From NCBI GenBank assembly GCA_030704615.1, contig CM060733.1, positions 63,984,001 to 64,048,000 on the forward strand: a DNA stretch of 64,000 bases, written 5' to 3'. Shown here in pieces: positions 1,255-41,650 of this stretch (positions are counted from its first letter, which is position 1; each line of letters starts with the position of its first letter). This DNA comes from Takakia lepidozioides. Taxonomy: Eukaryota > Plantae > Bryophyta. The position numbers and the translations under genes are program-made. Under the pieces are notes generated by a model. That model searched no databases. It saw nothing but the letters and a program-made list of their open reading frames with translations, and was not told the origin of the DNA.

Positions 1255-3761
1255 ACCTAAATGAGGAGGTGAGGAATTGGCAATGTGGTCATTGACCAAA
1301 AATTTCCAGCATCCTCTTTCTGGTCCAAGAAAGCGCGGTATCCATTTTCCAAGGATGGCCACTATCTGTATTTCAGGATCCAGCACCCCCAGCCCTCCTT
1401 TTTTTTTTGGTAAACAGATCTGTATCCAAGCTACCTGTGGTCTCTTGTTGTGAACGGAGCATTCTGCTCCCTATATGAAGTTCCGGAGGAGACGTCTGAT
1501 TTCTTGCATCTCTTTAGAGTTTGGGCGCCATGAGGAGGCATAGTACCATAGACCAGCTGAATGAATCTGATTCACAACTAAGGCTCTTCCAACGAGAGAG
1601 AGATGTTTTGACCCCCAGTAGGTCAATTTTCTCTTTAGCTTGGTTAATGTAGAGGCAAAGATTTGCTGGTCTGTGAGGTTAATTCCAAAGGTATATCCTA
1701 ACAAGGTGGTTGTTTCGCCAGGCTAGAGCCAACTGAGACCCTGATCCACCCCCCAAGAGGGTGGTGAGCCTATAGTTGATGCCGTTAGGTCACCAACGAG
1801 CAAGCTAGAAGTTTTGTTCCAATTAATTTTGAATCCCGAGGCTTTGCAAAAGGTACGCAGAGTATGTCCTGCTTGGTCCAAGTTTTTTGACGTCGCTTGC
1901 AGCATTAAAATGGTGTCATCTACGAACATAGAGTCGGTCAGCTAGGTGTACTGGCCCGTGATATAGTTTGAGACCCTAAGGCCTGTTATGAATTGGTTTT
2001 GCTACAACATATATCCTAGGGTATCTGCCACTACCAGAAACAGAAAGGGTGAGAGGGGACATCCCTGTCTAACCGATCGCTGAAGAGGGAAGGAAGAAGA
2101 CAAGTGGCCATTTACAGTAACCCTACTGGATGAAGAAGTAAGAAGAATCTTAACCCACTTGCAAAAAGAATGAGGGAAGCCAAGTTTTACCAGGGCTGCA
2201 AGCAAGTAAAACCATTCCACCCGATCGAAAGCCTTTTCAAAATCCAAGAGAAGAAGGGCAATGGCTTGATTGGTCCTTAGGGCATAGTCTGGGATTTCCT
2301 GTGCAAGGAGGAGGTTGTCCAGAATATACCAGCCTTTAATAAATCCTGTCTGGTTGGGCCGAATAAGGGATGGTAGAAGAGGTTGAAGTCTAAGGGCGAA
2401 AGCCTTGGCTATGATTTTGTAGGCGACATTCAGAAGGGTTATAGGGCGGTAATTCAAAATATTCGTTCTATCCCCCTTTTTGTACAACAAGGTAATTACC
2501 CCTTGAGCCATTGAAGGTGACGTCTGACCTTGCTGAAACAGATGATTGGCCATAGCTGTAAAATCCCCTAAAATCTCTGGCCACAATGCTTTATAAAACT
2601 CAACAGAAATGCCATCTATACCAGGTGATTTGTTGTTCTGCATCTTAGATAGAGCTTCTTCTAATTCCAAGTCAGAGAAGTCTCCCTCAAGCTGCGCGGC
2701 ATATTCAGGAGAAAGCATGGAAGGGGTGTGAATCAAACAGGCTGTCTGGTCATGAGAAGGATCTAGGGAGGTGCTGTCACTGTGGAAAAGGTGCTGGAAA
2801 TGGCCACCATCAAGGGTTGCCATCGATTTAGGTGTTGTGTTTGAGATCCCCGATGGTTGGGCAACAAGTTCAGAGATGGTTTGAGAAGCTCTTCTCAATC
2901 TGGTTTTGTCGAAGAAGTATTTTGTCATCTTTTCCCCTTTTGTTGACCAGTTAACCCCCGCCTGTAACTTCCACTTTCTCTCCTGGATTTTGTGGTGAAT
3001 GTCAAGATTGTTCCTGGCTTGGACATAAGTTTTGTAAGTATCGTCATCGCAACGACTGGATTCCAATGCATATTGGCATACTCTGAGGCATTTAGATAAG
3101 GCCCTAACCTTTTTCTTTCGGACGACTGCTAATTCTCGGCTTATTCTTTGGCTTTTTGTATTGACCGTTTTTAGCCTGGCCAGGAAGAGCTCAGTTGGGT
3201 TTAGGTCTGGGTTTCCAGCTTGAGACCAAGCCTGCAGAAGACCCTGTTTGAAGGAGGGTCATTTGAGGAGGATATTATTCAGCTTGTAGAGGCCTCTGCC
3301 CCGTCTGCATGAATGAGGGATTGAGATAGAAAGGGTGATTGGTGCATGGTCAAATCCCAAAGGAATGGGTTCCTGCGGGGCTCTTTTAGAGAATTGTACC
3401 AAATTGAGGGAAAGGTAAGCTCTGTCAAGACGAGCCATACTAAGGTCGGTGAGGGTTCTATTATTGGACCATGTAAAGGTGATATTGGATGCTTGACCGA
3501 AAACAAGTGCTGCCTCCTTGAGATTATGTGTTTGAGTTGCGCAAAATTGCAATCTGCCAGGTATCCAAATATCTTTTGCTGCGAGAAAGGGCTGTAAAGA
3601 GGGGGATAACAACATCGTTGTCCCCCCTTTGGTGCCTGAAGAGGTTGGTTTCCAAAGAGAGTTTGTTAAAGGCCATAGATAGTTTTGATTCTCAGCCTTT
3701 TGAGAGATGAAGGGTCACATCCAAGGCCCCCGATGTTCCAGGAATGAAGGTTAAAGGTCAT
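1255..3761 (-). pseudogene. L1-like LINE ORF2 (APE endonuclease + reverse transcriptase), disrupted and 3'-truncated
   Basis: Starts MTFNLHSWNIGGLG at 3761; APE C-terminal motifs FTWSN..ARLDRAYL..DHAPI (ORF 3259-3615); RT motifs KSPGIDG, YRPITLLN, LLDFEKAFDRV, RQGCPLSP (2002-3066), FVDD (1723-1929), GGLGVLD (~1390). Stops, frameshifts and an apparent deletion in APE. Confidence 0.93.
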
Positions 3762-4201: not shown

Positions 4202-4359
4202 AATTGAAGCTGGTAAATGAAACAGGGGAGGGTGAGGCGGGCACCTGAATAGGGGAGGGTAGAGGGGTAGGTGTTAAAACCCTAGGTGGAGAGGTGACTT
4301 GCGAGCTGGCCTGAGAGATGAGTTGAGTGGAGACCGGGATTGGTGGGGGCGATATTTGT
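4202..4359 (-). pseudogene. C-terminal Pro/Ser-rich part of LINE ORF1, separated from the rest by the Gypsy insertion
   Basis: Removing 4360-16169 joins ...PAVETLQ in frame to ISPPPIPVSTQLISQ...SFTSFN*. Confidence 0.7.
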
Positions 4360-4718
4360 TGTCAAGTTAAATAAGCACAGTGTGAAAACAGCTAGAATAA
4401 AACTAGTTATTTGTAGTTAACACTTGGATTTAGGTCAAGTGTTAAATCAGGTGTCAAGTTTAGTTTGACACCTGGTCCGTCTTATCTTCACGAGAGCGGC
4501 AGTCGCGCGGCTCATCTTTCTCGAGTTGAGCCTGCGCGACCGAGCTCCTGTGTGCGTTTAGATCTGAGTTTACTCATGATGGGAGTGTAGGTTGTTGTGG
4601 GGTGGAGTCCCCATAGCTTGGGGTGCCCCTGGCTCGACTACTGTTTTAAAGAGTGATGGTTTTGGATTTCACATTGTTTCTTGTGTGGAGAGCAGTGTCA
4701 TTTGTTAGCTTTCTTATC
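4360..4718 (+). repeat. Terminal repeat A1 (359 bp)
   Basis: Matches 15719-16077 with two transitions seen by eye. Confidence 0.97.
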
Positions 4719-4733
4719 ACTCGAGAAAGATGA
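4719..4733 (+). promoter_or_regulatory. Putative self-priming primer binding site
   Basis: ACTCGAGAAAGATGA lies directly after A1 and is the exact reverse complement of 4512-4526; no TGG-type tRNA PBS is present. Confidence 0.75.
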
Positions 4734-6778
4734 CCTCTTACCTGTGAGTGCAAGGTAGGAGTTGAGGGTTAGCACTTGTACGATTACCTGTGTGTAAGTA
4801 GTGCTTAGTTTTAGAAGCTTAGAAGAAAAAAAAAAAAACAAAACAAAATATGCAGGTTTCGATCAGCGTTGGTTCTGGCATGAGGCCGCCGGGCATGATG
4901 GAGCTACACTGCATGGAAGCAGCCTTTGTTTTGGTCGGTGAGGAGACATCATGGAGTAGCAGCGATTGGCCATTGGGAAACTGACCAAGTGCGAGACTTA
5001 AAGGAGGAGCCTGTGATCGAGCAGATGGGTAGAACTCCCGTGCCTGGAGATGGCCGGGCTGCTCGCCTTAGTTCGATGTGCACAGACCAGTGTTAAATTA
5101 GAACCAGGACAGACCAGAAGCGGTCAGGAAAGGCAGCGGAAGAGCAGGTGGAGCTGGTGTAGCGGAGCCAGTTGAAGGAGGAGCTGTAAATCTGCTCCCT
5201 CCAGTAAATGCAGCGCCGGCAGGTAGAGCATGGCGCAGCGAGCTGGTTGAAGGTGCAGGGCCCGAGAGAGAAAGCCTAGCACAAAGCGATGGAGAACGGG
5301 GAGCCCATTGCTGGCATATCATCAACACTGCAAAACCAGGAGTCTCACAAATCTTCATGCTACTTGTGATTGTGGCTGGAAAGCTGCTTTCACCTGGTCG
5401 ATTATCTGCATAAGCAACCAACTTTCTGACAAAAAGGGTTGTTGGGGGCATTGTTGATTTCGGAGAGTGCAAGGTGCAAAGTCGTTTTCGTTTTTTAAGT
5501 GCTTCAGGTTTGTACAAAGCCAAGTAGCTGTTGCTGCCTTGCACCTTGGGTCCACCATTTTGATGTGGAAACTGGTGGAAAGTCGAATGGTGGTTCACAA
5601 CCCAGCTTTCAACTCAGCACACTGCCCGAGTCCAAGATTGTGGCGATACAGGTCAAGGGAGCTCCAGCTCTATTTGTCTCATCATTGAACACTTCCAACT
5701 GATCACTTGCCTCTACTGTCATTTCGGCGTCAAGGGTACTTACTTCTGCACAGGCGAGCAGGGGAGGAAATGCGAAGACTCGTAGCAGGAGAAGCAATGC
5801 TGACGGATGAGGCCAGCGGACGAGAGCTTCCAAGGGTTGATGGAGAGGCGGTTGAAGGAGGCTGCAGATTGAGTTCCACTTTACTGAGGCAATCGCAAAT
5901 TCCTGTAGAGACTTGATAACTATATGATTGTCTCTCTTATACTGGAGCTGATGCAGATGGACCCAGGCCTTGGGTCTACATGCTGAGCATGGTTCACTTT
6001 CTTTTTCCTGGCAGTGAAGTCGTCTGTGCCTTGTGGGGGTGGTGACGGGGCAATCTGGTGCCTGTTGTCGCCGATCCCTGACCTGTAGAATGCACACAAA
6101 AGCAAACACGAGCAGTAACAGGAAGGCGGAAACCATTCTAAGCCAACAATAATCGTTGGCGAGAGATGCGAATTAGACCAAGTTGATGGAACTTCAAGCT
6201 GGTCTTGGCTTTGGATTCCATGCAAAGACGGCCACATCACAGCAGGCCGCCTGTCCATAAGCCATGAAGGTGCTGCGCAGTGCATCTGCTCTTGAAATCG
6301 CCCCAATTCCTGGTTTGTAGTCTCTAGGTCTCGAGGAGGCAGGCCCACGCGCAGAGAAAGCAAATCGTGATACCCCACCCAACTGAGGTCGAGTGTTGGA
6401 ATTAACGAGCTCTTGGTGCCTGGAGAATCCTGGAGGGGAACGACCTCGGGAACTCGTAGATAACCTGGGAACAGGTTGTAATGGCAAAAGCGTTTTGGTG
6501 TTAAAAAAAAAAAAAACTTTTTTTTTTGATCTAATTTAAATGTTTAAAGAGCCTGGTTGGTCATATCTTTGTCAAATGAGCTCCGTTTGACTCAGTTTTT
6601 GAGGGGATATCTGCAGAAAGGGGAAATCTACCTATCTAGACCTGGTTTCTGTTTTTGGGACTCTGCTAAAAATCTATGGAATTTTTAGAGTGTGAGTGTG
6701 CCATGAAAGATCCACAATCCTGTCTCTAGAACCTGTGCTGGTCTATATGAGAGACAAATTGGTGGATGTACTCCTTGC

Positions 6779-7528
6779 ATGGCTGGGGGAAATGAGGACG
6801 TAATTGAAGGGCAGGTCTCTTCTCTTAGTCTGTGCACACAAGGGGACAGGATTTATGTTTCCCAAGGAACTCAGACTGATTTGAGTGGAGAACAGTTGGA
6901 CGAGTTGATTGCATACTGGGAGTCAGGCATTAGCAGTAGACAACAGACTGCTGTAGTTGGCATTGAGGGCCTCAATATCGCCTTGGACAGTCAGAACTCT
7001 GTTGGAGCCAGCAGTTCTGCAGCTGTAGGTGAAATACCAAAGTGGGTGAAAGCTAGGCTTGGAACACAGCCAAAGACAGCCCCGGGGACCAAGGTGTTCA
7101 GTCACAAGGCCGTGGTGTACTGGAGCAGAGGAGCAGGAGCTACACAAGTTTGTGCAATCAGACATGATTGCAGCCGGATACGCTCTGCACAGGGCAACCA
7201 CGAGCGGGGGTTCATCAGCAATGACATGTTTGTTGTGCGTGAAGGAGATGCAGTCATTCGCAATGAGGACACCCGCAACCGTCTCAAAGCTTTCGAGTTG
7301 AGAGACTATCAAACCCTACCTTTGTTTTCTTTAGTGTTCAGTGAGCGGGAGATAGGGGAGTATTGCTTTGTCTCTACCTGGCAGAAAGAGGAGGAGGGTT
7401 GGTTAGAGCGAGCTACTGTAGCTTGGGACAAGGTTAGTGGCAGGTTTCTGGACATAGATATACCTCCTACACCTTACCATCATGCAGAGCGAGGCACTTT
7501 GAGAGAAGTCTGGCAGTTGATAGCATAG
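6779..7528 (+). CDS. Extra ORF upstream of gag, 249 aa, unknown function
   Basis: ATG-initiated uninterrupted ORF inside the element, same strand as gag-pol; no motif recognised. Confidence 0.5.
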   Translation: MAGGNEDVIEGQVSSLSLCTQGDRIYVSQGTQTDLSGEQLDELIAYWESGISSRQQTAVVGIEGLNIALDSQNSVGASSSAAVGEIPKWVKARLGTQPKTAPGTKVFSHKAVVYWSRGAGATQVCAIRHDCSRIRSAQGNHERGFISNDMFVVREGDAVIRNEDTRNRLKAFELRDYQTLPLFSLVFSEREIGEYCFVSTWQKEEEGWLERATVAWDKVSGRFLDIDIPPTPYHHAERGTLREVWQLIA

Positions 7529-8046
7529 ATCAGGATTAGATCTTGCTTGGTCGGGCTTCTATTCTTCCCCTCCATCTCTGTACTATTTTCATTACCTTGT
7601 ACTTGTAGTTGCCAAAGCCTCTCTTGGTGGAGGCCAGTCAGTCCGGGGTTTTGGGCTGGGATATTCTGCAGGATCAGCGTTGCTGCTGGATTTTGGTGTG
7701 GGGGTGTTGATGTTTTGATTTCTTGTGTTTGGATCCCCCCAACACCTGCATGCTTGACTGTGCGCCATGTTGGTTTTGTGTGGGCGCTTGCTTTCATAGG
7801 GATTAGGCCGGATTTGATCACCGGTCAATCCTAGAGTATGCTGTCGGTGGTGAGGCTGGAGTGATGACCAGCAAGACCACCAGTGTTTCTTCTATGGTGA
7901 GGCTGGGTTGATGACCAGCCAACCATAGGAGTTCTTGCGGTGGATGCAGGTGCAGGTGCCCTGAGCCATTGGGATATGACCCTTAGACTGCAACAGGTGC
8001 CCACCCGTGTCACTATTAGATTAGTACTAGAGCCTTATAGTGTCAC

Positions 8047-9879
8047 GTGGAGGAGGTGCACATTGTGAGTGTCATTACGGAGTTACCCAAGGGTTTTGAG
8101 GGGAGTACGGCTACAAGCAGTGACAGTGAGAGTGGGGTCACAAGACGAGGTATTCGGTTCAGACCACCTTCACCGCCACCCTCAACTACTGTAGCGTCAG
8201 ACACAGACTCGGAGGCTTCATCAACAGGTGTGCACTTTCATTCGCCATTGTTGTGGGACGACATGGAGGAGATGTATGGAGCTACCAAGGGGCCTCGTAG
8301 GTACTCTGGAGCTGTGGGCACAATCGAGTTGGATGACTTTATCCAGGAGTTCGACAGCTGGTGTGATTTGCAGCAGATGCGCAATCCACAGCTATTCACC
8401 CCATTCATGGCGTGGAAGGGACTGTTCCAGCATTTGGAAGGCCCGCCTATGGACGATTACCACGAGTTCAGGCGAGGACATGAAGCAGAGATTGAGGAGT
8501 GGAGGATGTATTGGTCACCTGACTACGTCTCCATTACTCGAGGCACGACGCGACCAGTAGCTGCATCAGTACCAATAGCTCCCACTGCCAGCACTAGTAG
8601 TGGAGCAAGTAGTGCTGGTACTTCTGAAGGTGGTACCAGTTCAAAAGGTGCTTCTCCTGCCACGACTACAACACATTTGCCAAGATTCAACCCGGTGGTG
8701 GAGTTCTTCCAGGAGTTGCGGAGGAACTACCAAGGTGTACGGACAGAGAAGCTGCGAAGTTTGCAAGACTTCCAGCGCAAACCCAGTGAGAGCCTGCGAG
8801 AGGCGTACACTCGTATGAGGCGCTTGATAAGTGTGACCCAAGGGGTTACTGAAGCTCAGGCAATCCAGTTTTGGTATGGAATTCTGGACAAGGAGCTCAA
8901 GAGAAGGGTGCGAGACGCAACCCTGTTACAAGCAGCCCAACCCACATTAGCAGATGTGTTTCTGCTGGCTGAGCGGATTGAGCTCAACATGGTGGAGGAG
9001 CGAGTTGTTACAATTGGATTTGGTAAGGACATGCCTGTACGGGGCACAGCTGTCAGCCCACAAGCACAAGGGACTGCCCAACAGCGTGGTCAGGGGGGCA
9101 AGGTTGCCCAGCCCAAGTTCCATGGAGCTTACAGGGGACCTCAGGTGCAGAGGCCCGTGGCATCTTTTGCAGGCCAACAGCAACCAGGGGTGATATGTTG
9201 GACATGTGGAGGACCCCATGTCAAGAGAGATTGCCCAGAGAGTGGCAGAAGGCCGGCACAAGCACAGCCTGCACAGTTGCAGTGTGGGCATTGTGGCAAG
9301 TATGGGCATGGAGATGCCCAGTGTTATGACTTGCATCCTGAGTTGCGCCCAGGCCAGTTCCAAGGGAACAATGGTGGCCGGGGGCGAGGTGGACCAGCCC
9401 AAAGAGGACGAGGTGGTCGGGCACGAGGTGCAGGCCAAGGGCAACCTCCACATGGCCAAGGACGCGGAGGTCAGGGTGTTGACCAAGGCATGGCCAATCG
9501 GCTTCAGCAGCTAGAGCAGAGGCTCGCTGCCATGGCTATAGCTCAGGCGGTACCGGCTCCCAGGCGGGATGGCCCACCTCCTGCTCCTGAGGGAGGAGAT
9601 ATGGGCGGAATGGGATTCATGTGCGGAGCAGCACTACCATTAGAGCAGGTGGAGTCTGCTGCAGCCGTGACTCGAGGAGCAACACGAGTTCCTGAGCCAC
9701 GAGGTGCAGAGGTGGAGTTGGATCCACAACGTGGGGAGGCAAGCCGTCAGGCAAGGCTGCCTCAGTCATTCACCTTGGCGGAGACAGTGTCAACGCCATC
9801 CATGGCACCTAGTTCTCGCCCGACTGTTACCGAGGCGGAGGTTACTATGCCATTGGGAAGAGCTACCGTGCAGCACTGA
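8047..9879 (+). CDS. gag: Gag (capsid-like region, two zinc knuckles, RGG-rich tail)
   Basis: LQDFQRKPSESLREAYTRMRRL resembles the retrotransposon gag motif; CWTCGGPHVKRDC and CGHCGKYGHGDAQC knuckles. Confidence 0.9.
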   Translation: MEEVHIVSVITELPKGFEGSTATSSDSESGVTRRGIRFRPPSPPPSTTVASDTDSEASSTGVHFHSPLLWDDMEEMYGATKGPRRYSGAVGTIELDDFIQEFDSWCDLQQMRNPQLFTPFMAWKGLFQHLEGPPMDDYHEFRRGHEAEIEEWRMYWSPDYVSITRGTTRPVAASVPIAPTASTSSGASSAGTSEGGTSSKGASPATTTTHLPRFNPVVEFFQELRRNYQGVRTEKLRSLQDFQRKPSESLREAYTRMRRLISVTQGVTEAQAIQFWYGILDKELKRRVRDATLLQAAQPTLADVFLLAERIELNMVEERVVTIGFGKDMPVRGTAVSPQAQGTAQQRGQGGKVAQPKFHGAYRGPQVQRPVASFAGQQQPGVICWTCGGPHVKRDCPESGRRPAQAQPAQLQCGHCGKYGHGDAQCYDLHPELRPGQFQGNNGGRGRGGPAQRGRGGRARGAGQGQPPHGQGRGGQGVDQGMANRLQQLEQRLAAMAIAQAVPAPRRDGPPPAPEGGDMGGMGFMCGAALPLEQVESAAAVTRGATRVPEPRGAEVELDPQRGEASRQARLPQSFTLAETVSTPSMAPSSRPTVTEAEVTMPLGRATVQH

Positions 9880-10189
9880 CACCTACTACCAAGGCTAGTG
9901 CAGCCGGTGTGTTATTGGGAGCAGCCACCTCTGTGTGTCAAGCCCCACTGTTCTCGGCGACCATGATTGCGACGCCGGGAGTGAGACCAGCTGCAGTGTT
10001 CAGACTAGCAGCAACACTCTGCGAGAGTGGAGAGGTCACTTCATCTTCTGCGGAGTTAGTGGAAGGTGTAGTGGCAGAGGGATCCTCGGATTTGAGGGTC
10101 AAGACTGCCACGGCAGCGCCCTGGCAAGCTGCAGCTGCCAGATTGACGGAGCTGCCAGCTAGGCCAGCCTTTGAGCGCGCCATGGTGAC

Positions 10190-10600
10190 ACCTGGAGTTG
10201 TCTTGTTAGACAACCAGGGAGGCATTTTCACTTTGAGTGGACCGGCAGGCAAGCAGTACCGGCCACTGCGGGTCTTGTTGGACTCAGGAGCTCAGCCACT
10301 GATGTTGGGCAGAGCTGCTATTGCAGGTTTGGGCCTCATGGAGGCGGATATGGAGCCTTGTCCTTTCCAGATACAGACATCTCTGGGAGGATCAGAGCAG
10401 GCTCGCGGCATGACATGGCATCAGTGGCTATTAGACTGCAGCCGGATCATCCTGTAGATGGCTCAGTGATGCGAGCCAAGGCCATTGTGACAGACGCGGT
10501 CTCTTACGATGTCCTCGTTGGTGGGGCAGTGTTATACCCCATGGGCTTCACCCTGGATTTCTGGGAGGAGTCAGCATCCTACAGGCCTGGATGGCAGTCA
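10190..10600 (+). CDS. Aspartic protease domain of pol (one frameshift near 10420)
   Basis: RVLLDSGAQPLML catalytic motif at ~10281; YDVLVGGAVL C-terminal motif in the next frame. Confidence 0.85.
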
Positions 10601-10990
10601 GGGGATGGTCGCCGTGCACAGCTCCCTGTGACATTCATTGGGGGTATTGCAGCTGCTCAGCGGGGCAAGATGCCAACACTAGCCGCCTTCACAGCTGCAG
10701 TCAGCTGGCCTGGAGAGTTGCTGGAAGGCAATGCCCATGCAGAGGATGTGCCACCTCCAGCAGAGCAGGATGACATGCATGGTACGGCGGAGTTGCCTGC
10801 CATGGTTGCTCACACTCCGTTGTGGGGTACGAGCAAGGATTTGCAGCACGCTGCTGATGGACGGGTGCAACAAGCTTGGGTAGAAGCTTTTGTACCGTCA
10901 GGAGAGGAGGAGAGTGCGGTGATTGTACCAGGGCCACCTCAGTTGTCGCCATTGGACACCACACCTCTTGTGTGGCAGCGACCGGATGAA

Positions 10991-11945
10991 GGCATATGCC
11001 TTCTGGACTTATTTGGCGGGATCAGCACTGGATTGGCTGCAGTGCTGCAGGCAGGTGTACGAGTTCGACGTTACCTGTATGTGGAGAGGGATGAGACTGC
11101 ACGACGCGTCTCACTGCGCCATGTTGCTCAGATGGTGCAGCAGCACCCTGAGTTGTTGCCGGTGTCTGCAGTTCGTGGATATCAGCAGGCCTTGCCAGCA
11201 GACATTGCGTTGCTGGGGGCGCAGGATTTGGAGCAGGTTGGCTCCATTGATCTGGTAGTGGCAGGTTGGCCCTGCCAAGGGCATTCATCAGCCGGGCATG
11301 GCAATGGATTGCGAGACTCGAGGACGGGTCTGTTTTGGGAGATGGTGCGGATTTTGCGCCACTTGCAGCTTCATTAGGCTGTATCTCCGGCATACATCTT
11401 GGAGAATGTGCCACTGATGGGTGATTCTCGGGCCAGGGTGATGGCCAGTGTGCATCAAGTCCGGTCGTGGCTTGGGTCAGCAGTGTTGCTAGATGCAGCT
11501 GCAGTGGGGTCACGGGCTCATCGTCCACGACTATGGTGGACTAACTTGATGCCACCCGCACTGCTCAAGCGTGCATTTGATGGGGTGCAGCGGCCAGCAC
11601 ACCTCACCGTGGATGGCATTTTGGACACAGGAAGGCAGTCTCAACGTGTGAGACACGATGACCGTTCGCCTTTGGCAGTGGTCAACAGGGTGGGTCAACC
11701 ACGAGCAGCATTACCTACACTGCTCAGCTTCCCAGGATCCTATGCTTTTCGGGATGGTGGACCTGGCCTCCTGTGGGATGCTCAGTTGCAGCAGTTAGTG
11801 GAGCCTAATGCCGACGAGCGAGAGCGGGCTATGGGGTTTTCCACTGGGACCACGGCGGTGCCTTCTCTTTCTGAGGCATCACGTCGTCAGGTGTTGGGGC
11901 AAGCAATGGATCTCAATTGCTTGACCTGGATTGTCAGCTTGGCTA
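10991..11945 (+). CDS. DNMT3-like C5 cytosine DNA methyltransferase domain embedded in pol (in-frame TAG at 11375-11377)
   Basis: Motif I LLDLFGGISTG, II YVERD, IV DLVVAGWPCQGHS, V TGLFWEMVRIL, VI YILENV, VIII AHRPRLWWTNL, IX ERERAMGF, X RRQVLGQAM, in canonical order. Confidence 0.93.
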
Positions 11946-12399
11946 TGGCTGAGCAACGTAGAGTGCGGAGTGCACTTCCCTTGACGGTCTCTCTGCCTAC
12001 CGAGACGGTACAGGCAGCGAGTGGGGGCGAGCCGGTGAGGACCACGAGGTGTAGACATCCATGGCACATGTGGGAGGTGCTCGAGGTTCAGAGGGAGTTG
12101 GCAGCGAAGGCAGCTGTGATGGATGAGGTTGGGGATTCTTCTCGGGATGAGAGGTCCTCAATGATGAGATGATGGGGCAGGATGAGGCCTTGTCATTGAC
12201 TGAGCAGGAAGGGGGTACTGTTCAAGAGGTTGCAGCATAGCAACCACGGGACGCGTCCTCTACCTCTAAGCCCACTGGACTTAAGGTTGCAGTTACGGAG
12301 GACAATTGGGAGCCTGATATTGGACCCATTGTCACCGGAGGAGAGAGACGACGTATACGGCGGTTCCTGAGGGCTTATAGGAATTGCTTTGCCTTCAGT

Positions 12400-13190
12400 T
12401 TGAAGGACTTGGGAGCACTGAAGGGTCAAGAGATCCGTATTGAGTTGGCCACTGACACGCCAATCTTTCGGAGACCCTATAGATACAGTGACATGGAGAG
12501 GTCTTTGATTCAGATGAGGACTCAAGATCTCTGGGAGGCAGGTTTGGTGGAGCTCTCTGGTGGAGAGTATGCTTCAGCCACAGTGATGCCAGCTAAGAAG
12601 GATGTCTATGGCAATTGGACGGAGAGACGTATGTGCGGTGATTACCGGCCTGTAAATCGTCAGACCAAGTCCGATAGGTATGCCATGCCAACACCAGAGG
12701 AGATCTTTGATGCCATTGGGCATTCCAAGGTCTTTAGCACGTTGGATTTACGATCCGGATATCACCAGTTGCCGATCAAGGAGGCGGATAAGCAAAAGAC
12801 GGCATTCTGGGGGATCAATGAGCACGGGAAGGATTGCCTATACCAGTGGCGGTTCTTACCATTTGGGCTTAAAAACGCTCCGCTGAGTTTCAAAGAGTCA
12901 TGGACAGGATTCTAGCAGGGGTGGAGTTTGCTCGGTGCTACATAGATGACATCATCATCTTTAGTGCTACGGTGGAGGAGCATGAGAGACACCTTCAGGG
13001 GGTATTTGAGCGCTTGAGGACGCAAGGATTGAAGTTACATCCGGGCAAGTGCAAGTTTTTCCACAACCAGATTGAGTATCTGGGTCACATGATATATCCT
13101 GGAGGATTGGGGGTACAACAGACTAAGGTAGAGTCCATTGCACAGGTTCCACGCCCCACGGATGTGAGCCGAGTTCGAGCTTTCATGGGT
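12400..13190 (+). CDS. Gypsy reverse transcriptase (frameshifted)
   Basis: RMCGDYRPVN, FSTLDLRSGYHQ, KTAF, LPFGLKNAP, CYIDDIIIFS, YLGHMI. Confidence 0.95.
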
Positions 13191-13261
13191 TAGCAAACTA
13201 TTACAGACGGTTTGTTAAGGGATTTAGTGCCATTGCAAAGGCTCTAACCAAGCTGACCAAG

Positions 13262-13740
13262 GTGGACCAGGAGTGGCAGTGGGAAGATGAGCAAGAACAA
13301 GCTTTTCAAGAGCTCAAGGCGAGGTTGACCTCGGCGCCCATCTTGAGACGACCTATCAGGGGGCGTCCTTTTCAGCTGCATACAGATTGGAGCATGCTGG
13401 GGCTTGGAGCGGTGCTCACACAGGTGGATGATGAGGGAAGAGAGTTCGTAGTGGCTTATGCTAGCCGCTCGAACAATGCTGCAGAGTCTAAGTATAGCTC
13501 ATATGAGGGAGAATGCTTAGCTGCAGTGTGGGCCGTGGCACACTTCAGGTGCTATCTATACGGCAATCTCTTCACCCTTGTCACGGATCACCAACCACTC
13601 AAGTGGTTGATGGAGTCAGACAAGCTTACGGGGAAGCTTGCACGGTGGGCACTCATCCTTCAAGAGTATGACTTTCAGGTGGTGCATCGACCGGGTTTGG
13701 TCAATCGAAATGCAGATGGGTTGAGTCGCAATCCATGCAC
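13262..13740 (+). CDS. RNase H domain
   Basis: FQLHTDWS..GLGAVL, VAYASR, ECLAAVW, TDHQPLKW, NADGLSR. Confidence 0.93.
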
Positions 13741-14099
13741 GAGCCAGCAGGATGACACTGGAGCTCGGTGGCATGGTGAGACGGACGAGGAGATGGTGCC
13801 CGGATGGCATGCATCTGCATTTCTGTGTATCTTGGCAGCGGAAGGCCAGGTTGGACCTACAACAGGGATGACTGTAGATCAAGTGTCTGAGGACCCTGAG
13901 GCCAGCAATGAGCAGGGTGGCGCCAAAGATATACATGAGGATTCAGTTGTGTTGGACTACCTCCGCAGTGGAGACACGACAGCCACTATGACTGCCAAGG
14001 AGAGGGATCGGATCCTACAACGAGCCAAGAGGTTCAGGTGGGAGGGGACACACCTGCTTCGAGTGTGGGAGGATGGTCGAGTGAGGATTGTGCCTCACC

Positions 14100-15200
14100 C
14101 AACACAGCGGGCACGGTTAGTGCGGCATGCCCATGAGGAGTTGGGGCATTTTGGGGTGCGACGCACTCATAGTCTACTGCAAGGGCAGTATTGGTGGCGT
14201 GGTATGCACACAGAGGTGCAACAATTTGTGGCTAGGTGCATGGTGTGTGACAGGGTGCGTGCTTCATTCAACGCCCCTACTCCACAATTGCACCCTCTTC
14301 CGATCATGGGATTGGGCTACAGGTGGAGTCTTGACTTCGCAGGGCCGTTGCCACTGACCATGCGCCACAACAAGTACGTGTTGGTGATGGTGGAGCACTT
14401 CTCCAAGTGGATTGAATTGGTTCCATTGCCTGATAAGGCTAGTGAGGGAGCTGCGTATGCATTCCTGGATTGTGTGCTTAGCCGATTCGGTGCTCCAGCT
14501 GAGGTACTCACGGACCAAGGGAGAGAGTTCTTGGGGGAGTTTCAGGCTTTGTGTGACAAGGCCTTGATAGACCACCGCACCACTTCCGGGATCATCCTGA
14601 AGCCGATGGCTTGGCAGAGAGAGTTGTTCAGACAGTAAAGAGGGGTTTGCGCAAGTATGGCTTGCAGAAGGGACACCTAGGGATTGGGACCTTCAATTAT
14701 CCTGGTTAGCCATGGGCTACAGGTTCAGCAAGCAAGCATCACTTGCCTCCTTCTCACCATACTTTCTTCTCTTTGGCCGAGAGCCGGATTTGCCTACATC
14801 CATTCGCAGAGAAGCTGCTACAGTTCTTAACCTTGACGATCCGGACGTGTGGGCACGTGCATGTGAGCAGCGTGCAGAGTTGTTCAAGAGAGTCATGCCC
14901 ATGGCTTTCGAGAACCTTGCCATTGCACAACACCGTGATACGTTGAGGTATGCTACCATACGTGGTGGGGGCTATCGTCCTGGGGTTCGGAGATTCAACC
15001 CTGGTGACTATGTCTATCTGCAGCAGACTGCTCCTACGACCCTGGATGTGACTGCAGGACGTGTTATTTTGAGGGTTCGAGAGGTCTTGCCCTCAGGCGT
15101 CTTGGTCTTGGAGGGTCGGGATGGCATAACTTGGAAGGACCATGTGCGTAATTGTGCGCCATGTCACCTTCCGAATGTCGATGGCAGGATTGACCCAAAC
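14100..15200 (+). CDS. DDE integrase (HHCC zinc finger + catalytic core; two 1-bp frameshifts)
   Basis: HEELGHFG..CMVC; WSLDFAGPLP; VEHFSKW; LTDQGREF; SPYFLLFGR; the frame is confirmed by the sister copy at 24860-25678. Confidence 0.95.
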
Positions 15201-15227
15201 CTGGCAGTGGTATCTGCAGGTTTGAGG

Positions 15228-15371
15228 TGCATGTTGTGTGGGTCTGCTAAAGGGGCAGCCACCATGCTGGTGTGCGATCAATGCTCTAGAGGTTGGCATA
15301 TGGGATGCTTGACTCCACCTCTTGAGATGGTTCCGGATGGGGATTGGTTATGTCCACATTGCATTGGATAG
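15228..15371 (+). CDS. PHD finger at the integrase C-terminus
   Basis: CMLC..MLVCDQCSRGWHMGCLTPPLEMVPDGDWLCPHC is a complete C4HC3 pattern. Confidence 0.95.
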   Translation, partial: CMLCGSAKGAATMLVCDQCSRGWHMGCLTPPLEMVPDGDWLCPHCIG

Positions 15372-15620
15372 TGGGAGTGGATACAACCATGGAAGGCTAA
15401 CAAGAAACGCAAGGCCCAGCTACTAGGAGACCTTGAACACACGAGGTCCTGGCTCAAGTTCACAGATTGCAAGATGACGACTAACGATGGGGCTACTCTT
15501 GTACCCGGCCTCTTGGTCTATAGAGTTTGAGTACAATAGGGACAGTGATAGAGGACTTAGTACGGCTGTGGCTATTACATCTTGTAGCTATCTGGAGGTA
15601 GAGGGACCTATCCACCAGCT

Positions 15621-15629
15621 AGGGGGGCG
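15621..15629 (+). promoter_or_regulatory. Polypurine tract
   Basis: AGGGGGGCG immediately before AT-TGTGG, the start of repeat B1. Confidence 0.75.
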
Positions 15630-15716
15630 ATTGTGGCAGACTACTTTATTGTGCATATATGTGTGGTGTGGTTTGGACAGCGATGTAGTTGTGTAGCGAT
15701 ATGTATGCGCACGACA
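15630..15716 (+). repeat. Terminal repeat B1 (87 bp)
   Basis: Identical by eye to 16079-16165. Confidence 0.97.
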
Positions 15717-15718
15717 GC

Positions 15719-16077
15719 TGTCAAGTTAAATAAGCACAGTGTGAAAACAGCTAGAATAAAACTAGTTATTTGTAGTTAACACTTGGATTTAGGTCAAGTG
15801 TTAAATCAGGTGTCAAGTTTAGTTTGACACCTGGTCCGTCTTATCTTCACGAGAGCGGCAGTCGCGCGGCTCATCTTTCTCGAGTTGAGCCTGCGCGACC
15901 GAGCTCCTGTGTGCGTTTAGATCTGAGTTTACTCATGATGGGAGTGTAGGTTGTTGTGGGGTGGAGTCCCCATAGCTTGGGGTGCCCCTGGCTCGACTAT
16001 TGTTTTAAAGAGTGATGATTTTGGATTTCACATTGTTTCTTGTGTGGAGAGCAGTGTCATTTGTTAGCTTTCTTATC
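15719..16077 (+). repeat. Terminal repeat A2 (359 bp)
   Basis: Copy of 4360-4718; separated from B1 by GC. Confidence 0.97.
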
Positions 16078-16078
16078 T

Positions 16079-16165
16079 ATTGTGGCAGACTACTTTATTG
16101 TGCATATATGTGTGGTGTGGTTTGGACAGCGATGTAGTTGTGTAGCGATATGTATGCGCACGACA
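16079..16165 (+). repeat. Terminal repeat B2 (87 bp), right end of the element
   Basis: Copy of B1; ends GACA and is followed by the TSD TTGT. Confidence 0.97.
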
Positions 16166-16169
16166 TTGT

Positions 16170-23044: not shown

Positions 23045-24858
23045 ATGTTTGTGGTGCTATTGCAAGGTGACTCCAATGCGCAAGTGGGCAAAGGGCTCCA
23101 TCAGGACGATATCATTGGGTCTTCTGGTGAGGACGAGCTGAATTCTAATGGCAGACGGTTAATTAACTGTCTGGAAGAGCTTCAGCTTTTGACCTTGAAT
23201 AACAAGACAAGAGGTGACCAAGTGCAGTGGACTCGTGAGAAATCCCAAACTGGGGAACGTTCCATTGTGGACTATATCATAATGGACAAAAATTTGTTCC
23301 CCGAGTGTTTCTCTTCGATGATCGACAGAACTGATATTGGTACCTTTGACCACTTCCTGGTTTGGACTGAGATCAAAAGGTGTTTTCCCAACACCAGAGT
23401 AGAAGAGATTCTCAAGGACCTGGACCTGGATCCGCAAGTCTTGACCCTGCTGGATAAATCCGACTTAGAGGCTGTAGTGTCCAAAGCCATGTCTGTTGCC
23501 ATGAGATTGTCTGATGAAAATGAAGTTAGGCAGAAAACTTCCCTGAACTTGTTTCTAGTCAGTGACATGGGGGAGGACATCTTGGATGACCTCAAGGGTC
23601 CACCCACTCTCGGCACTAGACTGAAATTTAAACTGAGGGAAGGAAGCCTACCTTTGAACAACAAACAGAAGCAGAGAGGAAAGGGGGAGTGCACTTCCCA
23701 TTGTGTGGGCAATCTGAAGACAATACTCATTTTCTGATACACCGTCTGGGGTTCTCTCACCAAATGGGCAAAGCTCTGGGGCTCACTAAATTTTCCACTG
23801 CACAGGGGTCAACTCTGAGGTTAAGAAAACCATGCTTTCTCGCGTTATTAGACCTGCCTTGGAGTACGGATCTGCTATATGGGTTGATAACTCCAACCAG
23901 GCTAAGTCTCTAGAATCCATTCAAGTGGGGGCGCTTAAGGAGTGTATGTCAGCATGCTCCAAAACAGCCAATGTGGCTGTTCGGGGTGAGTTTGGCATTC
24001 CATCATTAAGCTCCCGACGAGATGAAATCAAGGTCAGATGGTGGGGTCAGCTGCAACATATGCCCAACACCAGATATCCTAAGTTAATCGACTCTATATC
24101 TTGGAAACCCTAAACCCTGTCAAACAGGCGAAGTCCTGGCAGAAGAGAGTAGAAAAGATTCTCAAGGACCTTGACCTGGATCCGCAAGTCTTGACCCTGC
24201 TGGATAAATCTGACTTAGAGGCTGTAGTGTCTGAAGCCATGTCTGTTGCCATGAGATTGTCTGATGAAAATGAAGTTAGGTAGAGAACTTCCTTGAACTT
24301 GTTCCAGTCAGTGACATGGGGGTGGACATCTTGGATGACCTCAAGGGTCCACCCACTCTTGGCACTAGACTGAAATTTAAACTCAGGGCAGGAAGCCTAC
24401 CTTTGAACAACAAACAGAAGCAGAGAGGAAAGGGGGAGTGCACTGCCCATTGTGTGGGCAATCTGAAGACAATATTCATTTTCTGATACACTGTCTGGGG
24501 TCTCTCACCAAATGGGCAAAGCTCTGGGGCTCACTAAATTTTCCACTGCACAGGGGTCAACTCTGAGGTTAAGAAAACCATGCTTTCTCGCGTTATTAGA
24601 CCTGCCTTGGAGTACGGATCTGCTATATGGGTTGATAACTCCAACCAGGCTAACCAGGGCAAGAAGCCTACCTTTGAATAGCAAACAGAAGCAGAGAGGA
24701 AAGGGAGAGTGCAATTGTCCATTGCGTGGGCAACCTGAAGACAGTATTCATTTTCTGATACACTGTCCGGGGTTCTCTCACCAAAGAGACGCTCTCTTCA
24801 ATTCTATCAAGGGAATTGTGCCTATACCCCTGTTTACCAACTTTGAAAGTCTCGAGGC
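23045..24858 (+). mobile_element. Scrambled non-LTR retrotransposon fragments (APE C-terminal half and post-RT region) with an internal tandem duplication
   Basis: GDSNAQVG, NSNGRRL, WTR, SIVDYII, FDHFLV; RPALEYGSAIW; CPLC..ED..HFLIHCP; 23397-23905 is repeated at 24147-24653. Confidence 0.85.
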
Positions 24859-24859
24859 T

Positions 24860-25678
24860 GTGTTGGTGATGGTGGAGCACTTCTCCAAGTGGATTGAGTT
24901 GGTTCCATTGCCTGACAAGGCTAGTGAGGGGGCTGCGTATGCATTCTTGGATCGTGTGCTTAGCCGATTTGGTGCTCCAGCTGAGGTACTCACGGACCAA
25001 GGGAGAGAGTTCTTGGGGGAGTTTCATGCTTTGTGTGATAAAGCCTTGATAGACCACCGCACCACTTCTCGGGATCATCCTGAGGCCGATGGCTTGGCAG
25101 AGAGAGTTGTTCAGACGGTGAAGAGGGGTTTGCGCAAGTATGGCTTGCAGAAGGGACACCTAGGAGATTGGGATCTTCAGGTTCCTTGGTTAGCCATGGG
25201 CTACAGGTTCAGCAAACAAGCATCACTTGCCTCCTTCTCACCATATTTCCTTCTCTTTGGCCGAGAGCCGGATTTGCCTGCAGCCATTCGTAGGAACACT
25301 GCTCAAGTCCTTAACCTTGACGATCTGGACGTGTGGGTACGTGCATGTGATCAGCGTGCAGAATTGTTCAAGAAAGTCATGCCCATGGCTTTTGAGAACC
25401 TTGCCATTGCACAACACCGTGATACGTTGAGGTATGCCACTATACGTGGTGGAGGATATCGTCCTGGGGTTCGGAGGTTTACCCCTGGTGACTATGTTTA
25501 TTTGAAACAGACTGCTCCTACGACTCTGGATGTTACTGCAGGGCGTGTTATTCTGAGGGTTCGAGAGGTGTTGCCCTCAGGGGTCCTGATCTTGGAGGGT
25601 CGGGACGGCATGACTTGGAAGGACCATGTGCGTAATTGTGCGCCATGTCACCTTCCCAATGTCGATGGCAGAGTTGAC
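24860..25678 (+). mobile_element. Second, partial copy of the DNMT-Gypsy integrase
   Basis: Near-identical protein to 14378-15194, in one open frame; stops just before the PHD. Confidence 0.95.
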
Positions 25679-26880: not shown

Positions 26881-27281
26881 CTACTAACCCACATTGCGAA
26901 AGAAAAGCCCACTGGGAAGGAAAGAAAGCCCACTTACCAGTGGAGGTGCACGGGCAGCTACCTTGCGCCGTTTGCCCGTGTCGGGGTTCGGCATTGGAGC
27001 TGGGCCTCTCTTTTCGGCAGAGCTCTCCACCTCCACCTCCTCATCCCTTGCCAATGGCTGGTAGTCGTCGGTGTCCGTATCCCCCGACGACGAGGACGAG
27101 CTGCCCACACTTGGACTTCGCCGCAGGTCCTTCATGGCCAGTCGGGGGGCTCCGACGCACAGAGGTCGTGGGGTCAGCTGCTCTCTTTGCAGGCGAGGGA
27201 GTTGCAACGCCGGTTCTCCGCCCCTCTTTGTCGGCAGACATGGACCACGAGAGGACAAGGCAAGACAGGCAGGGAAGAAAA

Positions 27282-30200
27282 TGTTGGAATTCGACAGAGA
27301 ATAGAGATTAAAGATGAACTGGTTACTGAGAACTCTCCACCCAACCATAGGACCACAACAAGCTGTGTCCACCCTTCGAGCTCTCCCTATTTATACTCAA
27401 AGTCTAATCCAGAAATAGCTGAGATAACTATAGCATAACTGCATGCTTTTACTTAAGATATCTCCATCTGCTATTCTGGTACAATGACTTGAGTCACTAA
27501 TAACTGAAGCTAACTTTAGCTATCTTTTAGCTAACCGAGGCTTATCTCTATTGTTAACTGTGACTTGTTAGTATGTCTGGTTGTAGATATGTTTAATTAC
27601 TTCCAACACTCCCACTCAATTAAACCATATCATTGAGCTACTTCGTTTGTCTTTGGAGAAGAGACACCAAGTAAGGTTGAACACTTCATGTGTTTTGTTT
27701 GTGGTAGACTCTTCGTCAAAACATCCGCAACCATATCTCCTGTAGCACAATAGATCATCTTGATCTCTCCCTTGCATACAACTTCCCGTATGTAGTGTTG
27801 TTGCACTTCAATGTGCTTCGTCCTTGAATATATTTCGGATTCTGACTTAGTGCAATCGCACTTTGATTGTCACAATAGAGAGTCGTAGGTAGTGATTGGA
27901 GATGATCCAAATCTTCAAGCAAATTCCGTAACCAAATAGCCTCATTTGCTGCTTGTGTAATGGACATGTACTCAGCTTCTGTTGATGACAACGCTGTTGC
28001 AACTTGTCGTTTGCTAGACCAAGATACAGCTCCACCTGCTAGGAGAAAACAATGACCTGAAGTTGATTTTCTACTATCAACGTCTCCTGCCCAGTCAGCA
28101 TCAGCAAACCCCAACAAACTTGGATCTTCCACTCTCTTATAGAGTAGACCAGAGGTTGATGTTCCTCTTAGATATCGAAATATCTTCTTCACTGCTTTCC
28201 AATGGGTTTGTCCGGGATTTGAAAGAAATTGTGAGACCACTCCCACTGAGATCTCCTTAGAATTGACACATCTTCAACTTCATCTCTAGAGTCCATATCA
28301 ACAAGTGGTTCACCAACTTCGACTCCTTGATCAACTCTATCAAGTTGAACACCTCCATCATTTGCTTCAGCCATCTCTTGTATTGGCTCCTCATAAGACT
28401 CATCTTGGAAATGGTGTAATGGCTCTAAGCTCATTCCCATGTCATCTTCTCCCACTACCAAAGAGGGTATGAAGCTTTCATCAAACACTACGTCCCTACT
28501 GTGTTTGACAGCCTTAGTTGTCTTATTGAACAACTTATATCCTTTCACACCTTCTGTGTAGCCAATAAAGATGCATCCTTCTGATTTGGAGTCAAATTTC
28601 CTTCGCTTCTGAGTAGAGATATGGACATATGCACGACATCCAAAAATCCTACAATGAGCCACACTAGGCTTCTGACCACTCCATACCTCTTCTGGTGTTT
28701 TTCCCAACACTGATTTGGTAGATATTCTGTTGTGAAGATATGTTGCAGTGCCAACAGCTTCTGCCCAAAAATAATTTGAAAGATTCACTTCTTTCAACAT
28801 ACTCCTTGCAGATTCTTGTAGTGATCTATTCATCCGCTCAGCTACACCATTCTGCTCAGGTGTATATGGAACAGTAAACTGTCGAGCTATTCCATTCTCT
28901 TGACAAAACTGATTGAAAGCCTTTGAGATGTACTCACCACCATTGTCAGATCTCAAAATCTTAAGAGGCTTTCCAGTTTGTTTTTCTGCAAGTACTTTGA
29001 ACTCCTTGAATTTCTCTAGCACTTGACTTTTCTGCCTTAGGAAATTCACCACAACCCTTCTTGACAAATCATCAATGAATGTCACAAAGTACCTTACTCC
29101 TCCAAGTGATGTGGTTTGCATTGGCCCGCACACATCAGAATGTACAATCTCCAATATACTTGTGGCTCTTCGTCCACCATCCTTAGGAAATTGACCTCGA
29201 TGTTGCTTCCCTTCAAAGCAACCTTTGCATAGACGCATATCGCTCATCTCCTTCAATGGTAGTCATTCCACAAGATGGCTTGAGAGTTGCATCTGTCTCA
29301 ACTTCTTAATGCTCACATGACCTAACCTTCTATGCCACAACTCTGTTTCTGACATGACAGTGTAGATCCCAACTGTGGTGAAAATGTGGTAAGAGCACTA
29401 GAGACATGATGTTGTAATCTATACAAGCAATTATCAAGAATAGCTCTTGCTACCACAGCTCCTGAGCTATCTGTGATAGTACAACTCTCATCTTGGAATA
29501 CCACTCTGTATCCCTTTGCAAACAATTTGCCTTACAGACAGCAGGTTCTTTGTTAAAGTAGGGACATGTAGGACATTTTCCACCTCTATGGTTTCCCCTT
29601 CATTGAGCATAAGAGAGACTGAGCCTTCCCCACCAATGACATGCTTGCTATCATCTCCCAAAAAAACATATTGTGTAGGTGAAAGAGATCTATAGGATAA
29701 GCATCTCTGAACTCATATGTTGAGATGCTCCTGAATCAACATACCACACATGCTTCTGTCTAGTAGTGGCTGAGAGAGACACAACAAATAGAATAGCATT
29801 CCTCTGATGAGTAGCTATGTTTCCTTGACTCTCTCTGCTGCGCTCATCTGCAATGCGCTTTCTACAATCCTTGATCATGTGACCAAGTTTCTTGCAATAA
29901 AAGCACCTCATTTTGGCCTTTTTGATCTTTGAGCTAGATTGAGGTTTCTGAAACCTCTGGGACTTCTGAGACATATGTGAAGGGAGTCTTCTATTCAAGA
30001 CTACTCCAGTCTTGCCTGTGAACAAAGCTCTGTCTACCTCTGTAGACGTACCTTGACATTTTCTTCTTGTTTCCTCCTTGAGGAGAAGTCTTATGACAAC
30101 ATCAATGGTTAAGTTGGTTTGTCCTGCTAGAGACACCACAAAACCATCATAGGATTCAAGTAAGGTTGCCAATAACACCACTGCGACGTGTTCATCAGTC

Positions 30201-31051
30201 ACATTAGTTCCCACAGAGACTAGTTGATCTCGCAACACACAAAACAAATTCAAGTGTTGTTCAACTGAGTCTGACTCGGTCATCTTCAGACCATAGAACT
30301 TTTGCGTCGCATACACTTGCGATGTGACATCCTTCGTCTCATATATGCTTGCTAGCTTGTCCCAAACATCCTTAGCATTCTTAGCACTTATAATGAGATG
30401 CAACTGTTTGTCTCTCAAACTTGTGATGATGCTAGCTCTTGCTTTCTAATCTTTCCTATCCCATATGGCTTGGCCAACAATAGTGTCAGGTCTTGGGACT
30501 GATCCATCAACCACTCCCCATAGATCTTTGTCTAGAAGGACCATCTCCATCATAAACTTCCAGGTTTGATAGTTAGCTCCATTGAATCGATCTTCCACTC
30601 TCACATCTAATGTACTCGTCATAGACATAGAAGGAGGATTGCTAGAAGACGACGCTCCAGCCATAATCAAGTTCTCTCATCTCAACTACCAACTCTCACC
30701 TAGAGAAGAATGGCTCTGATACCATGTTGGAATTCGACAGAGAATAGAGATAAAAGATGAACTGATTACTGAGAACTCTCCACCCAACCATAGGACCACA
30801 ACAAGCTGTGTCCACCCTCCGAGCTCTCCCTATTTATACTCAAAGTCTAATCCAGAAATAGCTGAGATAACTATAACATAACTCCATGCTTTTACTTAAG
30901 ATATCTCCACCTGCTATCCCGGTACAATGACTTGAGTCACTAATAACTGAAGCTAACTTTAGCTATCTTTTAGCTAACCGAGGCTTATCTCTATTGTTAA
31001 CTGTGACTTGTCAGTATGTCTGGTTGTAGATTTGTTTAATTACTTCCAACA
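27282..31051 (-). mobile_element. Ty1/Copia element, internally deleted (most of RT missing)
   Basis: 327-bp LTRs at 27282-27608 and 30725-31051 (TGTTGG..CCAACA, about 10 differences); TSD GAAAA; tRNA-iMet PBS TGGTATCAGAGCC at 30712-30724; PPT near 27609-27619; gag CFYCKKLGHMIKDC, protease WYVDSGAS, integrase HSDVCGP/LRSDNGGEY/EQNGVAER, RNase H DADWAG. Confidence 0.97.
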
Positions 31052-41399: not shown

Positions 41400-41650
41400 A
41401 CTCCAGTCGGGGTTACACTGGGTTGTACGATGAGGTGTGTAACTCCACCTAGGGTCACATCGGGTTACACGACGAGGTGTGTAACTCCACTCGGGGTTAC
41501 ACAGAATGGAACTCCAATCGGTGTAACCCACATTTAGTCTCGAAATTTGACTAAGTCCAAATGTGGCTAAGTATAAAATGGACTTACATGAGAAAGCGGG
41601 GTTACAAAGGGTTACACCAATTGGAGGATTACATCAACCGGGGTTACACT
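41400..41650. repeat. Short repeat cluster built on GGGTTACAC / GTGTAACT
   Basis: About 46-bp unit repeated at 41400-41500, plus scattered GGTTACA copies in both orientations. Confidence 0.6.

Follow-up and report, generated by a model that had tools for sequence, protein, structure and literature searches.

Probable self-priming and a proposed LTR-internal integrase site in a Ty3/Gypsy element with split terminal repeats from Takakia lepidozioides

The locus described here raises the question of how a retroelement starts reverse transcription and inserts itself when the bases that follow its 5′ repeat are complementary to that same repeat, and when its outer ends fall inside its predicted LTR. 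The window, meaning the whole stretch of DNA that was analyzed, comprises 64,000 nt of Takakia lepidozioides (CM060733.1), and all coordinates without a prefix are window positions. It contains an 11.8-kb Ty3/Gypsy element (4360-16165) encoding gag, protease, cytosine methyltransferase, RT, RNase H, a DDE integrase, and a PHD finger, with broken coding frames between the repeats (Table 1). With a probability of roughly 0.6, we propose that this element primes its own reverse transcription with the first 12–15 bases of its RNA and integrates by cutting end-joined cDNA at a palindrome internal to the LTR.

Table 1. Coordinates of the element's features in the window.
Feature	Position	Strand	Remarks
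Left target-site duplication TTGT	4356..4359	+	Matches 16166-16169; no extension to 5
Repeat A1, inferred downstream U3 + R + U5; element 5′ end TGTC	4360..4718	+	99.4% to 15719-16077
GC-rich hairpin around primer segment	4502..4540	+	Folding vs shuffles
Predicted self-primer; predicted start at or near 4512-4514	4512..4526	+	Exact complement of 4719-4733; arrangement recurs in five other families
Partner of predicted second helix with 4524-4532, spanning predicted cleavage site	4631..4639	+	Minimum-energy fold from 4512/4514
Primer binding site (PBS)	4719..4733	+	Directly 3′ of A1; no TGG
Gag-like frame, stop to stop	8041..9879	+	Retrotrans_gag E 0.0016, under Pfam cut-off; homologous frames in related loci
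Aspartic protease-like frame	9813..10457	+	Weak Pfam match, E 0.057
C5 cytosine methyltransferase region, stop-interrupted	10175..12172	+	PF00145 E 2e-10
Reverse transcriptase, broken frame	12241..12915	+	RVT_1 E 3e-11
RNase H + integrase zinc finger + core (rve, DDE type), broken frame	13127..14638	+	Pfam
Integrase C-terminal part ending in PHD finger	14601..15371	+	PF00628 E 4.5e-11
Polypurine tract (PPT)	15619..15629	+	Directly 5′ of B1; motif common to many related loci
Repeat B1, inferred upstream U3, 87 bp	15630..15716	+	100% to 16079-16165
Palindrome GACA-GC-TGTC at B/A junction, inferred integrase attachment site	15713..15722	.	Halves match element ends
Repeat A2, carrying second hairpin (15861-15899) and primer segment (15871-15885)	15719..16077	+	
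Junction j between A2 and B2, one extra base in window copy	16078..16078	+	Variants in aligned contigs
Repeat B2, 87 bp; element 3′ end GACA	16079..16165	+	Diverse flanks past B end in other copies
Right target-site duplication TTGT	16166..16169	+	Matches 4356-4359

A sequence-only reading of the window had placed the hairpin in a repeat of the element; this repeat, the 359-bp A1 at 4360-4718, is real, but it forms only part of a terminal repeat system whose split layout that reading had missed. The element is arranged as A-coding-B-A-B, and the PPT is followed in order by B1, the two bases GC, A2, a single base, and B2. The element begins with TGTC at 4360 and finishes with GACA at 16165, one half each of the internal GACA-GC-TGTC, and TTGT flanks both ends. 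Matching target duplications of 4 bp were found in four of the five elements for which both ends were recovered, and three of 4 bases matched in the fifth. The palindrome was kept in all seven junctions listed, with an imperfect center in L005, and it persists in relatives at 46-53% protein identity; in L068, which groups with a K. nitens protein, a two-sided change leaves it (4664-4673) perfect.

Ending at the palindrome is a family-wide trait. In run X1, at least 41 of the 5591 contigs aligned on 15480-16105 depart from the reference at 15716, beyond which they carry unrelated flanks (agreement 0.36), and the A ends of other subfamilies likewise join B; in run X6, two contigs exit at 15716 and one enters at 15719. 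A first reading of the locus as a one-off circle insertion was dropped on the basis of these family-wide ends and the layout of related loci. Such loci were recruited from metagenomes (80 kept of 90), and in a second family the order PPT-B-palindrome-A-j-B was present in nine loci, representing six distinct insertions, while PPT-B followed directly by flank, without A-j-B, was present in 14 loci, representing 11 distinct insertions, and one further locus was a fold-back; these counts exclude, from 35 PPT-matching loci, nine in which no B end was found and two cut by contig ends. The three elements of the second form (ending PPT-B) with both ends known were plain A-coding-B. All 10 element 5′ ends begin at A after unique flank, none with B, and the 42 matches to the start of B comprise 29 after the PPT, 11 after an A end, one after an internal deletion, and one loose match. 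Four of the loci (L005, L044, L063, and L068) show B-P-A-PBS in a row, reflecting a tandem arrangement or a collapsed assembly, and their true ends are not visible.

The PBS begins at the first base past A1, and 4719-4733 is an exact 15-nt reverse complement of 4512-4526 with mismatches on both sides, as had been noticed from the letters of the window. A PBS-anchored complement of 15 nt or more arose in none of 2000 dinucleotide shuffles of repeat A (maximum 12). Across six families, which were chosen as those with an inverted match right after the repeat end, the complements measure 15 nt (window), 12 nt (L047), 16 nt (L005), 16 nt (L044), 14 nt (L063), and 19 nt (L068); they differ in letters, and in each case none of 2000 shuffles was as good. 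The primer segments of all six end in GT and their PBSs all begin with AC. In L035, one sequence set, the PBS match extends up to 21 nt. Because the six families keep the match with different letters, the PBS tracks the repeat, and TGG is absent after the repeat end, self-priming, as the sequence-only reading had inferred, is supported, and the element very probably primes its own reverse transcription without a tRNA. TATA-like boxes lie at -31 (L047), -26 (L005), and -28 (L068) relative to the primer segment; a canonical TATA box is absent in the window and in L044, the window having only TTATC at -30.

Between the six families the PBS changes with the repeat; within the window's family, a compensatory change predicted from a repeat variant was not found. 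The major repeat variant at 15877 (equivalent to 4518) accounts for 81% of the summed depth in run X1, and no compensatory PBS change at 4727 was present among the aligned contigs, a set that would lack any subfamily diverged on the two flanks of the PBS; nor did the aligned contigs hold any PBS variant at a share of 1% or more. With the 4518 variant and an unchanged PBS, 14 of the 15 pairs remain. At 11 ends of decayed second-family copies, the exact complement within the same A measures 12, 12, 12, 11, 10, 10, 7, 5, 5, 5, and 4 nt, so that only 4-10 exact bases are left in seven. A single deletion junction (L018 and L074, one insertion) falls a few bases before the predicted start of R, which is too weak to serve as evidence.

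Folding recovered the hairpin around the primer segment as first described, its minimum-energy form having a stem of 4502-4514 and 4527-4540 with one bulged base and a loop of 4515-4526. The region 4490-4550 folds at -32.5 kcal/mol (z -3.24; 0/200 shuffles as good), and 4487-4541 gives z -2.86 (2/200 shuffles as good). With upstream bases included, a stable stem forms in four of the six families (z -2.9 to -4.0); it is weak in L068, and L063 has no hairpin (z +1.7). In the context of A2, the outer stem pairs with a probability of 0.97-1.0. Because forming the hairpin takes bases that precede the predicted start, and an RNA starting at the primer would carry the upstream arm only in its 3′ copy, the hairpin likely forms in that copy and in plus-strand DNA. 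A role in masking the second primer segment, and thereby limiting fold-back, is a tentative suggestion to which we give slightly less than even odds. Locus L032 (3361-3878) carries A2, then the PBS, then the inverted first part of A, stopping at an inverted palindrome half; this looks like the product of fold-back followed by an internal cut, the kind of error that masking of the second primer would limit, and a library or assembly artifact is possible. The 5′ repeats of L011 (3874-4200) and L009 (3801-4125) lack one hairpin arm, and PBS-like letters take the place of the loop in L011. The predicted second helix was matched by eight of 500 shuffles in the window, where it was seen first; when the other families were tested afterwards, it was present in five of the six overall (6-19 of 500 shuffles each), and it was unsupported in L063 (484/500 shuffles as good).

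If reverse transcription ran in the ordinary way from the PBS and PPT, each cDNA end would carry B-GC-A. The observed ends therefore call for a cut inside the LTR, and the terminal B after A2 means that the two cDNA ends must be joined. We consider it highly likely that the integrase attachment site is internal to the LTR, at the palindrome. Junction j is precise in most copies; in the window's family, aligned contigs show variants with a base lost or two bases added, L001 has extra bases, and L010/L012 contain a 19-base insert partly copied from nearby. Some of these variants look as if they hold PBS- or PPT-derived bases, and the A/B junction appears to vary as an end-joined junction would. 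Precise junctions would also be explained by inheritance. On balance, the A/B join would be made anew in each cycle, a reading that we favor with moderate confidence.

These observations suggest a cycle in which the RNA would start near 4512-4514, pair with the PBS, and be cleaved past ∼4526, much as in Tf1, where the RNA 5′ end pairs with the PBS and is cleaved to free the primer. The second helix (4524-4532 with 4631-4639) may frame this cut, resembling the extra helices that lie near the cut in Tf1. Synthesis primed from the PBS and PPT would then produce linear cDNA with a full LTR of B-GC-A, and its two ends would be joined to form junction j, either through end-joining by the host or because the reverse transcriptase jumps from one end to the other. 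By established integrase chemistry, cutting after CA on both strands of GACA-GC-TGTC would give two-base overhangs like those of processed retroviral ends, and the DDE integrase is proposed to cut the palindrome in this way and to insert the element with a 4-bp duplication. Since the repeated R needed for strand transfer occurs only in A-coding-B-A-B copies, the joined form would be obligatory. The masking role suggested above for the hairpin would then keep fold-back in check. A symmetric circle also predicts a mirror form, A-j-B-A-coding-B, which was found at none of the 10 5′ ends; this form could turn into A-coding-B by short-read collapse or by recombination between the two close A copies. 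Reverse transcriptases can jump end to end, and such a jump could give asymmetric forms; A-coding-B could also arise from two cuts on linear cDNA.

Two other accounts of priming were weighed. Priming by a tRNA or tRNA fragment, with an incidental match to the repeat, is very improbable: TGG is missing past the repeat end, the PBS differs among the six families and tracks the repeat each time, Rfam gave no match at 4300-4900, and ARAGORN found no tRNA within the 64-kb window. The sequence-only reading had suggested that the RNA starts upstream of 4502 and that a switch between hairpin and PBS pairing at its 5′ end gates priming. Besides the stable hairpin in four of six families (weak in a fifth), this suggestion gains from the effect of adding 40 upstream bases, which lowers predicted primer:PBS pairing from 0.75-0.98 to 0.00-0.31 in the four stable-stem families, and from the L035 match of up to 21 nt, which could mean an earlier start. 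Against this, L063 and L068 show no such suppression, window RNAs starting at 4490 or 4502 still favor the duplex (0.74-0.76), and the outcome of duplex versus hairpin in the window fold flips with the assumed start. The position of the loop is not conserved either, since the primer segment lies in the loop only in the window's family and in the stem in three others. The TATA spacing in three relatives sets the start at the primer segment and thus puts the upstream arm of the hairpin before the predicted start, so a switch at the RNA 5′ end was not established and is doubtful, and the account built on it is rather unlikely.

As to the split layout, A-j-B could be inherited as such, with RNA reading through into B2 and template switches rebuilding both ends without a fresh join, in which case self-priming and the internal site would still hold; rebuilding of both ends by template switching is the model proposed for PAT/Ngaro. 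The layout is identical to the A1-B1-A2-B2 of those elements (PMC4157794), most junctions are precise, and the mirror form is missing from all 10 5′ ends. However, the PBS and PPT are kept at ordinary LTR positions, B begins right after the PPT, junction variants include apparent PBS- or PPT-derived bases and a templated insert, and a Pfam scan of frames from the element, among them five leader frames of at least 130 aa at E 0.5, found no tyrosine recombinase. Inheritance of the join is therefore judged unlikely. The reading that the split layout arose only once, when an ordinary LTR element was rearranged or misassembled, has a negligible chance of being correct; the related loci do come from metagenome assemblies, in which repeats can collapse, and this may explain some of the A-coding-B forms, but the reading is refuted by the recurrence of the layout in the second family, the family-wide ends at the palindrome, and the matching duplications. 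Six insertions were recovered twice, could be read at the 3′ end, and carried no other rearrangement, and in all six the two recoveries have one form; A-coding-B-A-B has been reported in Klebsormidium as well (PMC5890265).

The Pol domains follow the Pfam order RVT_1, RT_RNaseH, Integrase_H2C2, rve, and the C-terminal part of the integrase had no Pfam match to a chromodomain, with a PHD finger there instead; among the matches listed, PF00385 (chromodomain) was carried by none of 120 homologs. The C5 methyltransferase (PF00145) sits between protease and RT, a position identical in related loci. Its best named matches among solved structures were DNMT3A/3B and DRM2, which were weak (21-27 bits), with HhaI close behind, and its second part had no match among the solved structures searched. 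For the RNase H-integrase frame, the best named relatives among the matches listed were Calypogeia and Riccia (76-77%), then Klebsormidium and Closterium; the K. nitens retrotransposon proteins match it at 43-50% and are not tied to the published KnitGypsy-Dnmt3 copies. A tree was built from the window together with 18 of the 80 loci and 21 of the 120 proteins, including those from K. nitens, 40 hand-chosen rows in all. The window grouped there with liverwort proteins and one metagenome family in a clade of 16 rows (100/100); long branches were flagged, and the tree, having no outgroup, does not place the lineage relative to Tf1/Tcn1. Many hypothetical-protein gene models of Marchantia polymorpha (P0122-P0139) match the methyltransferase region at 42-67% and probably represent copies of the element's lineage. 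A scan of viral contigs found no relative of the element.

The closest published likeness is KnitGypsy-Dnmt3 of Klebsormidium nitens, which combines Gypsy domains with a Dnmt3-like methyltransferase in Pol and has repeats arranged as in DIRS elements, A-coding-B-A-B, according to the legend of Fig. 4c (de Mendoza et al., 2018; PMC5890265). The window element shares the repeat arrangement and has a C5 methyltransferase in Pol, whereas it groups in a clade with liverwort proteins. The available text of PMC5890265 gives no PBS, self-primer, palindrome, target duplication, PHD, or mechanism for KnitGypsy-Dnmt3, and the text of three of its supplements makes no mention of PBS, primer binding, or integrase. 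Self-priming has been proposed for Tj1 (PMC4600332), and a prediction across plant elements assigns it to 12% of them, mainly Tcn1 and TAR (PMC6317226). As in Tf1, Tj1, and Tcn1, the 5′ repeat of the window element is directly followed by a PBS that is complementary to a stretch within this repeat; its 15 nt exceed the 10 bp used as a criterion in PMC6317226. The window element differs from all three in having a methyltransferase in Pol and ends inside the LTR, and from Tcn1, in which a C-terminal integrase chromodomain and a 5-bp target duplication each occur at 100% (PMC6317226), in having a PHD finger and no chromodomain, and in that elements of its type have a 4-bp duplication (four of five). 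It shares the 4-bp duplication with Phygy/Selgy, whose PBS matches tRNA-Trp or tRNA-Ala (PMC6317226), in contrast to the window, where the repeat is not followed by TGG.

PAT, Toc, Kangaroo, Ngaro, and VIPER are tyrosine-recombinase retroelements with split direct repeats A1-B1-A2-B2 (PMC4157794). The window element resembles the PAT/Ngaro group in its split direct repeats and internal B/A junction, but it has a DDE integrase, a PBS, a PPT, and a 4-bp duplication, with no recombinase found, and the central GC of its junction is lost on insertion. A retroviral integrase can cut the palindromic junction of a 2-LTR circle (PMC4372172), and those of HIV and foamy virus can cut circle junctions as a back-up (PMC4372172; PMC1905944; PMC1180852). 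The proposed cut resembles this in that an integrase of the same fold would act on a palindrome in circular cDNA; the retroviral cut, however, is a back-up made at the joined ends, whereas the palindrome here is separate, inherited, and LTR-internal, the joined ends would stay uncut, and the cut is proposed as the main route. By the features tested, the element resembles Tf1 in its priming and PAT/Ngaro in its layout yet falls outside both groups, and it fits elements of the KnitGypsy-Dnmt3 type. The chances are about even that a Gypsy lineage extending from streptophyte algae to liverworts has uncoupled its integrase site from its cDNA ends, self-priming and passing through an obligatory 2-LTR circle cut at an LTR-internal palindrome. 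In the parts available, a 2026 preprint on adenine methyltransferases and a 2025 review contain no description of this integration route, and the literature covered, which included subscription papers and repeat-database reports only thinly, holds no account of self-priming, palindrome, or integration mechanism for the lineage.

The 2-LTR circle has long been considered a dead end or at most a back-up substrate (PMC4372172). If the proposed cycle is correct, an integrase of the retroviral type would be able to sustain an entire life cycle by acting at an internal palindrome, with circles as an obligatory intermediate, and the element would be the DDE-integrase counterpart of PAT/Ngaro elements, representing a second origin of split repeats without a recombinase and explaining the DIRS-like layout of KnitGypsy-Dnmt3. 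Self-priming would also reach a lineage that has no chromodomain. Tools built around TG...CA LTR pairs flanked by duplications would probably miss or mis-bound such elements, and the Marchantia polymorpha relatives open the start site, the junctions, and the circles to direct study in a model plant.

Several further features of the window were noted. The 3.3-kb leader of the element, compared with only ∼1 kb in the second family, contains a 273-aa frame (6707-7528) with no Pfam match and no tblastn match among the loci listed. A second, truncated copy of the integrase region (24860-25678) is 92% identical to 14378-15194 and has no PPT, B, or A downstream, and just upstream of it lies a 510-bp direct repeat (23396-23905 and 24146-24653). 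A separate reverse transcriptase frame (2002-3258, minus strand) lies upstream of the element, and a Copia-type element with 328-bp repeats at 97% occupies 27281-31051 on the minus strand. A frame at 50441-51388 matches dUTPase just above the Pfam cut-off. Tandem units of ∼386 bp are found at 35079-38024, inside a larger duplication spaced at 2.1 kb, and several nested inverted repeats of 15-48 nt, in a MITE-like arrangement, lie at 45748-46979 and 41265-41913.
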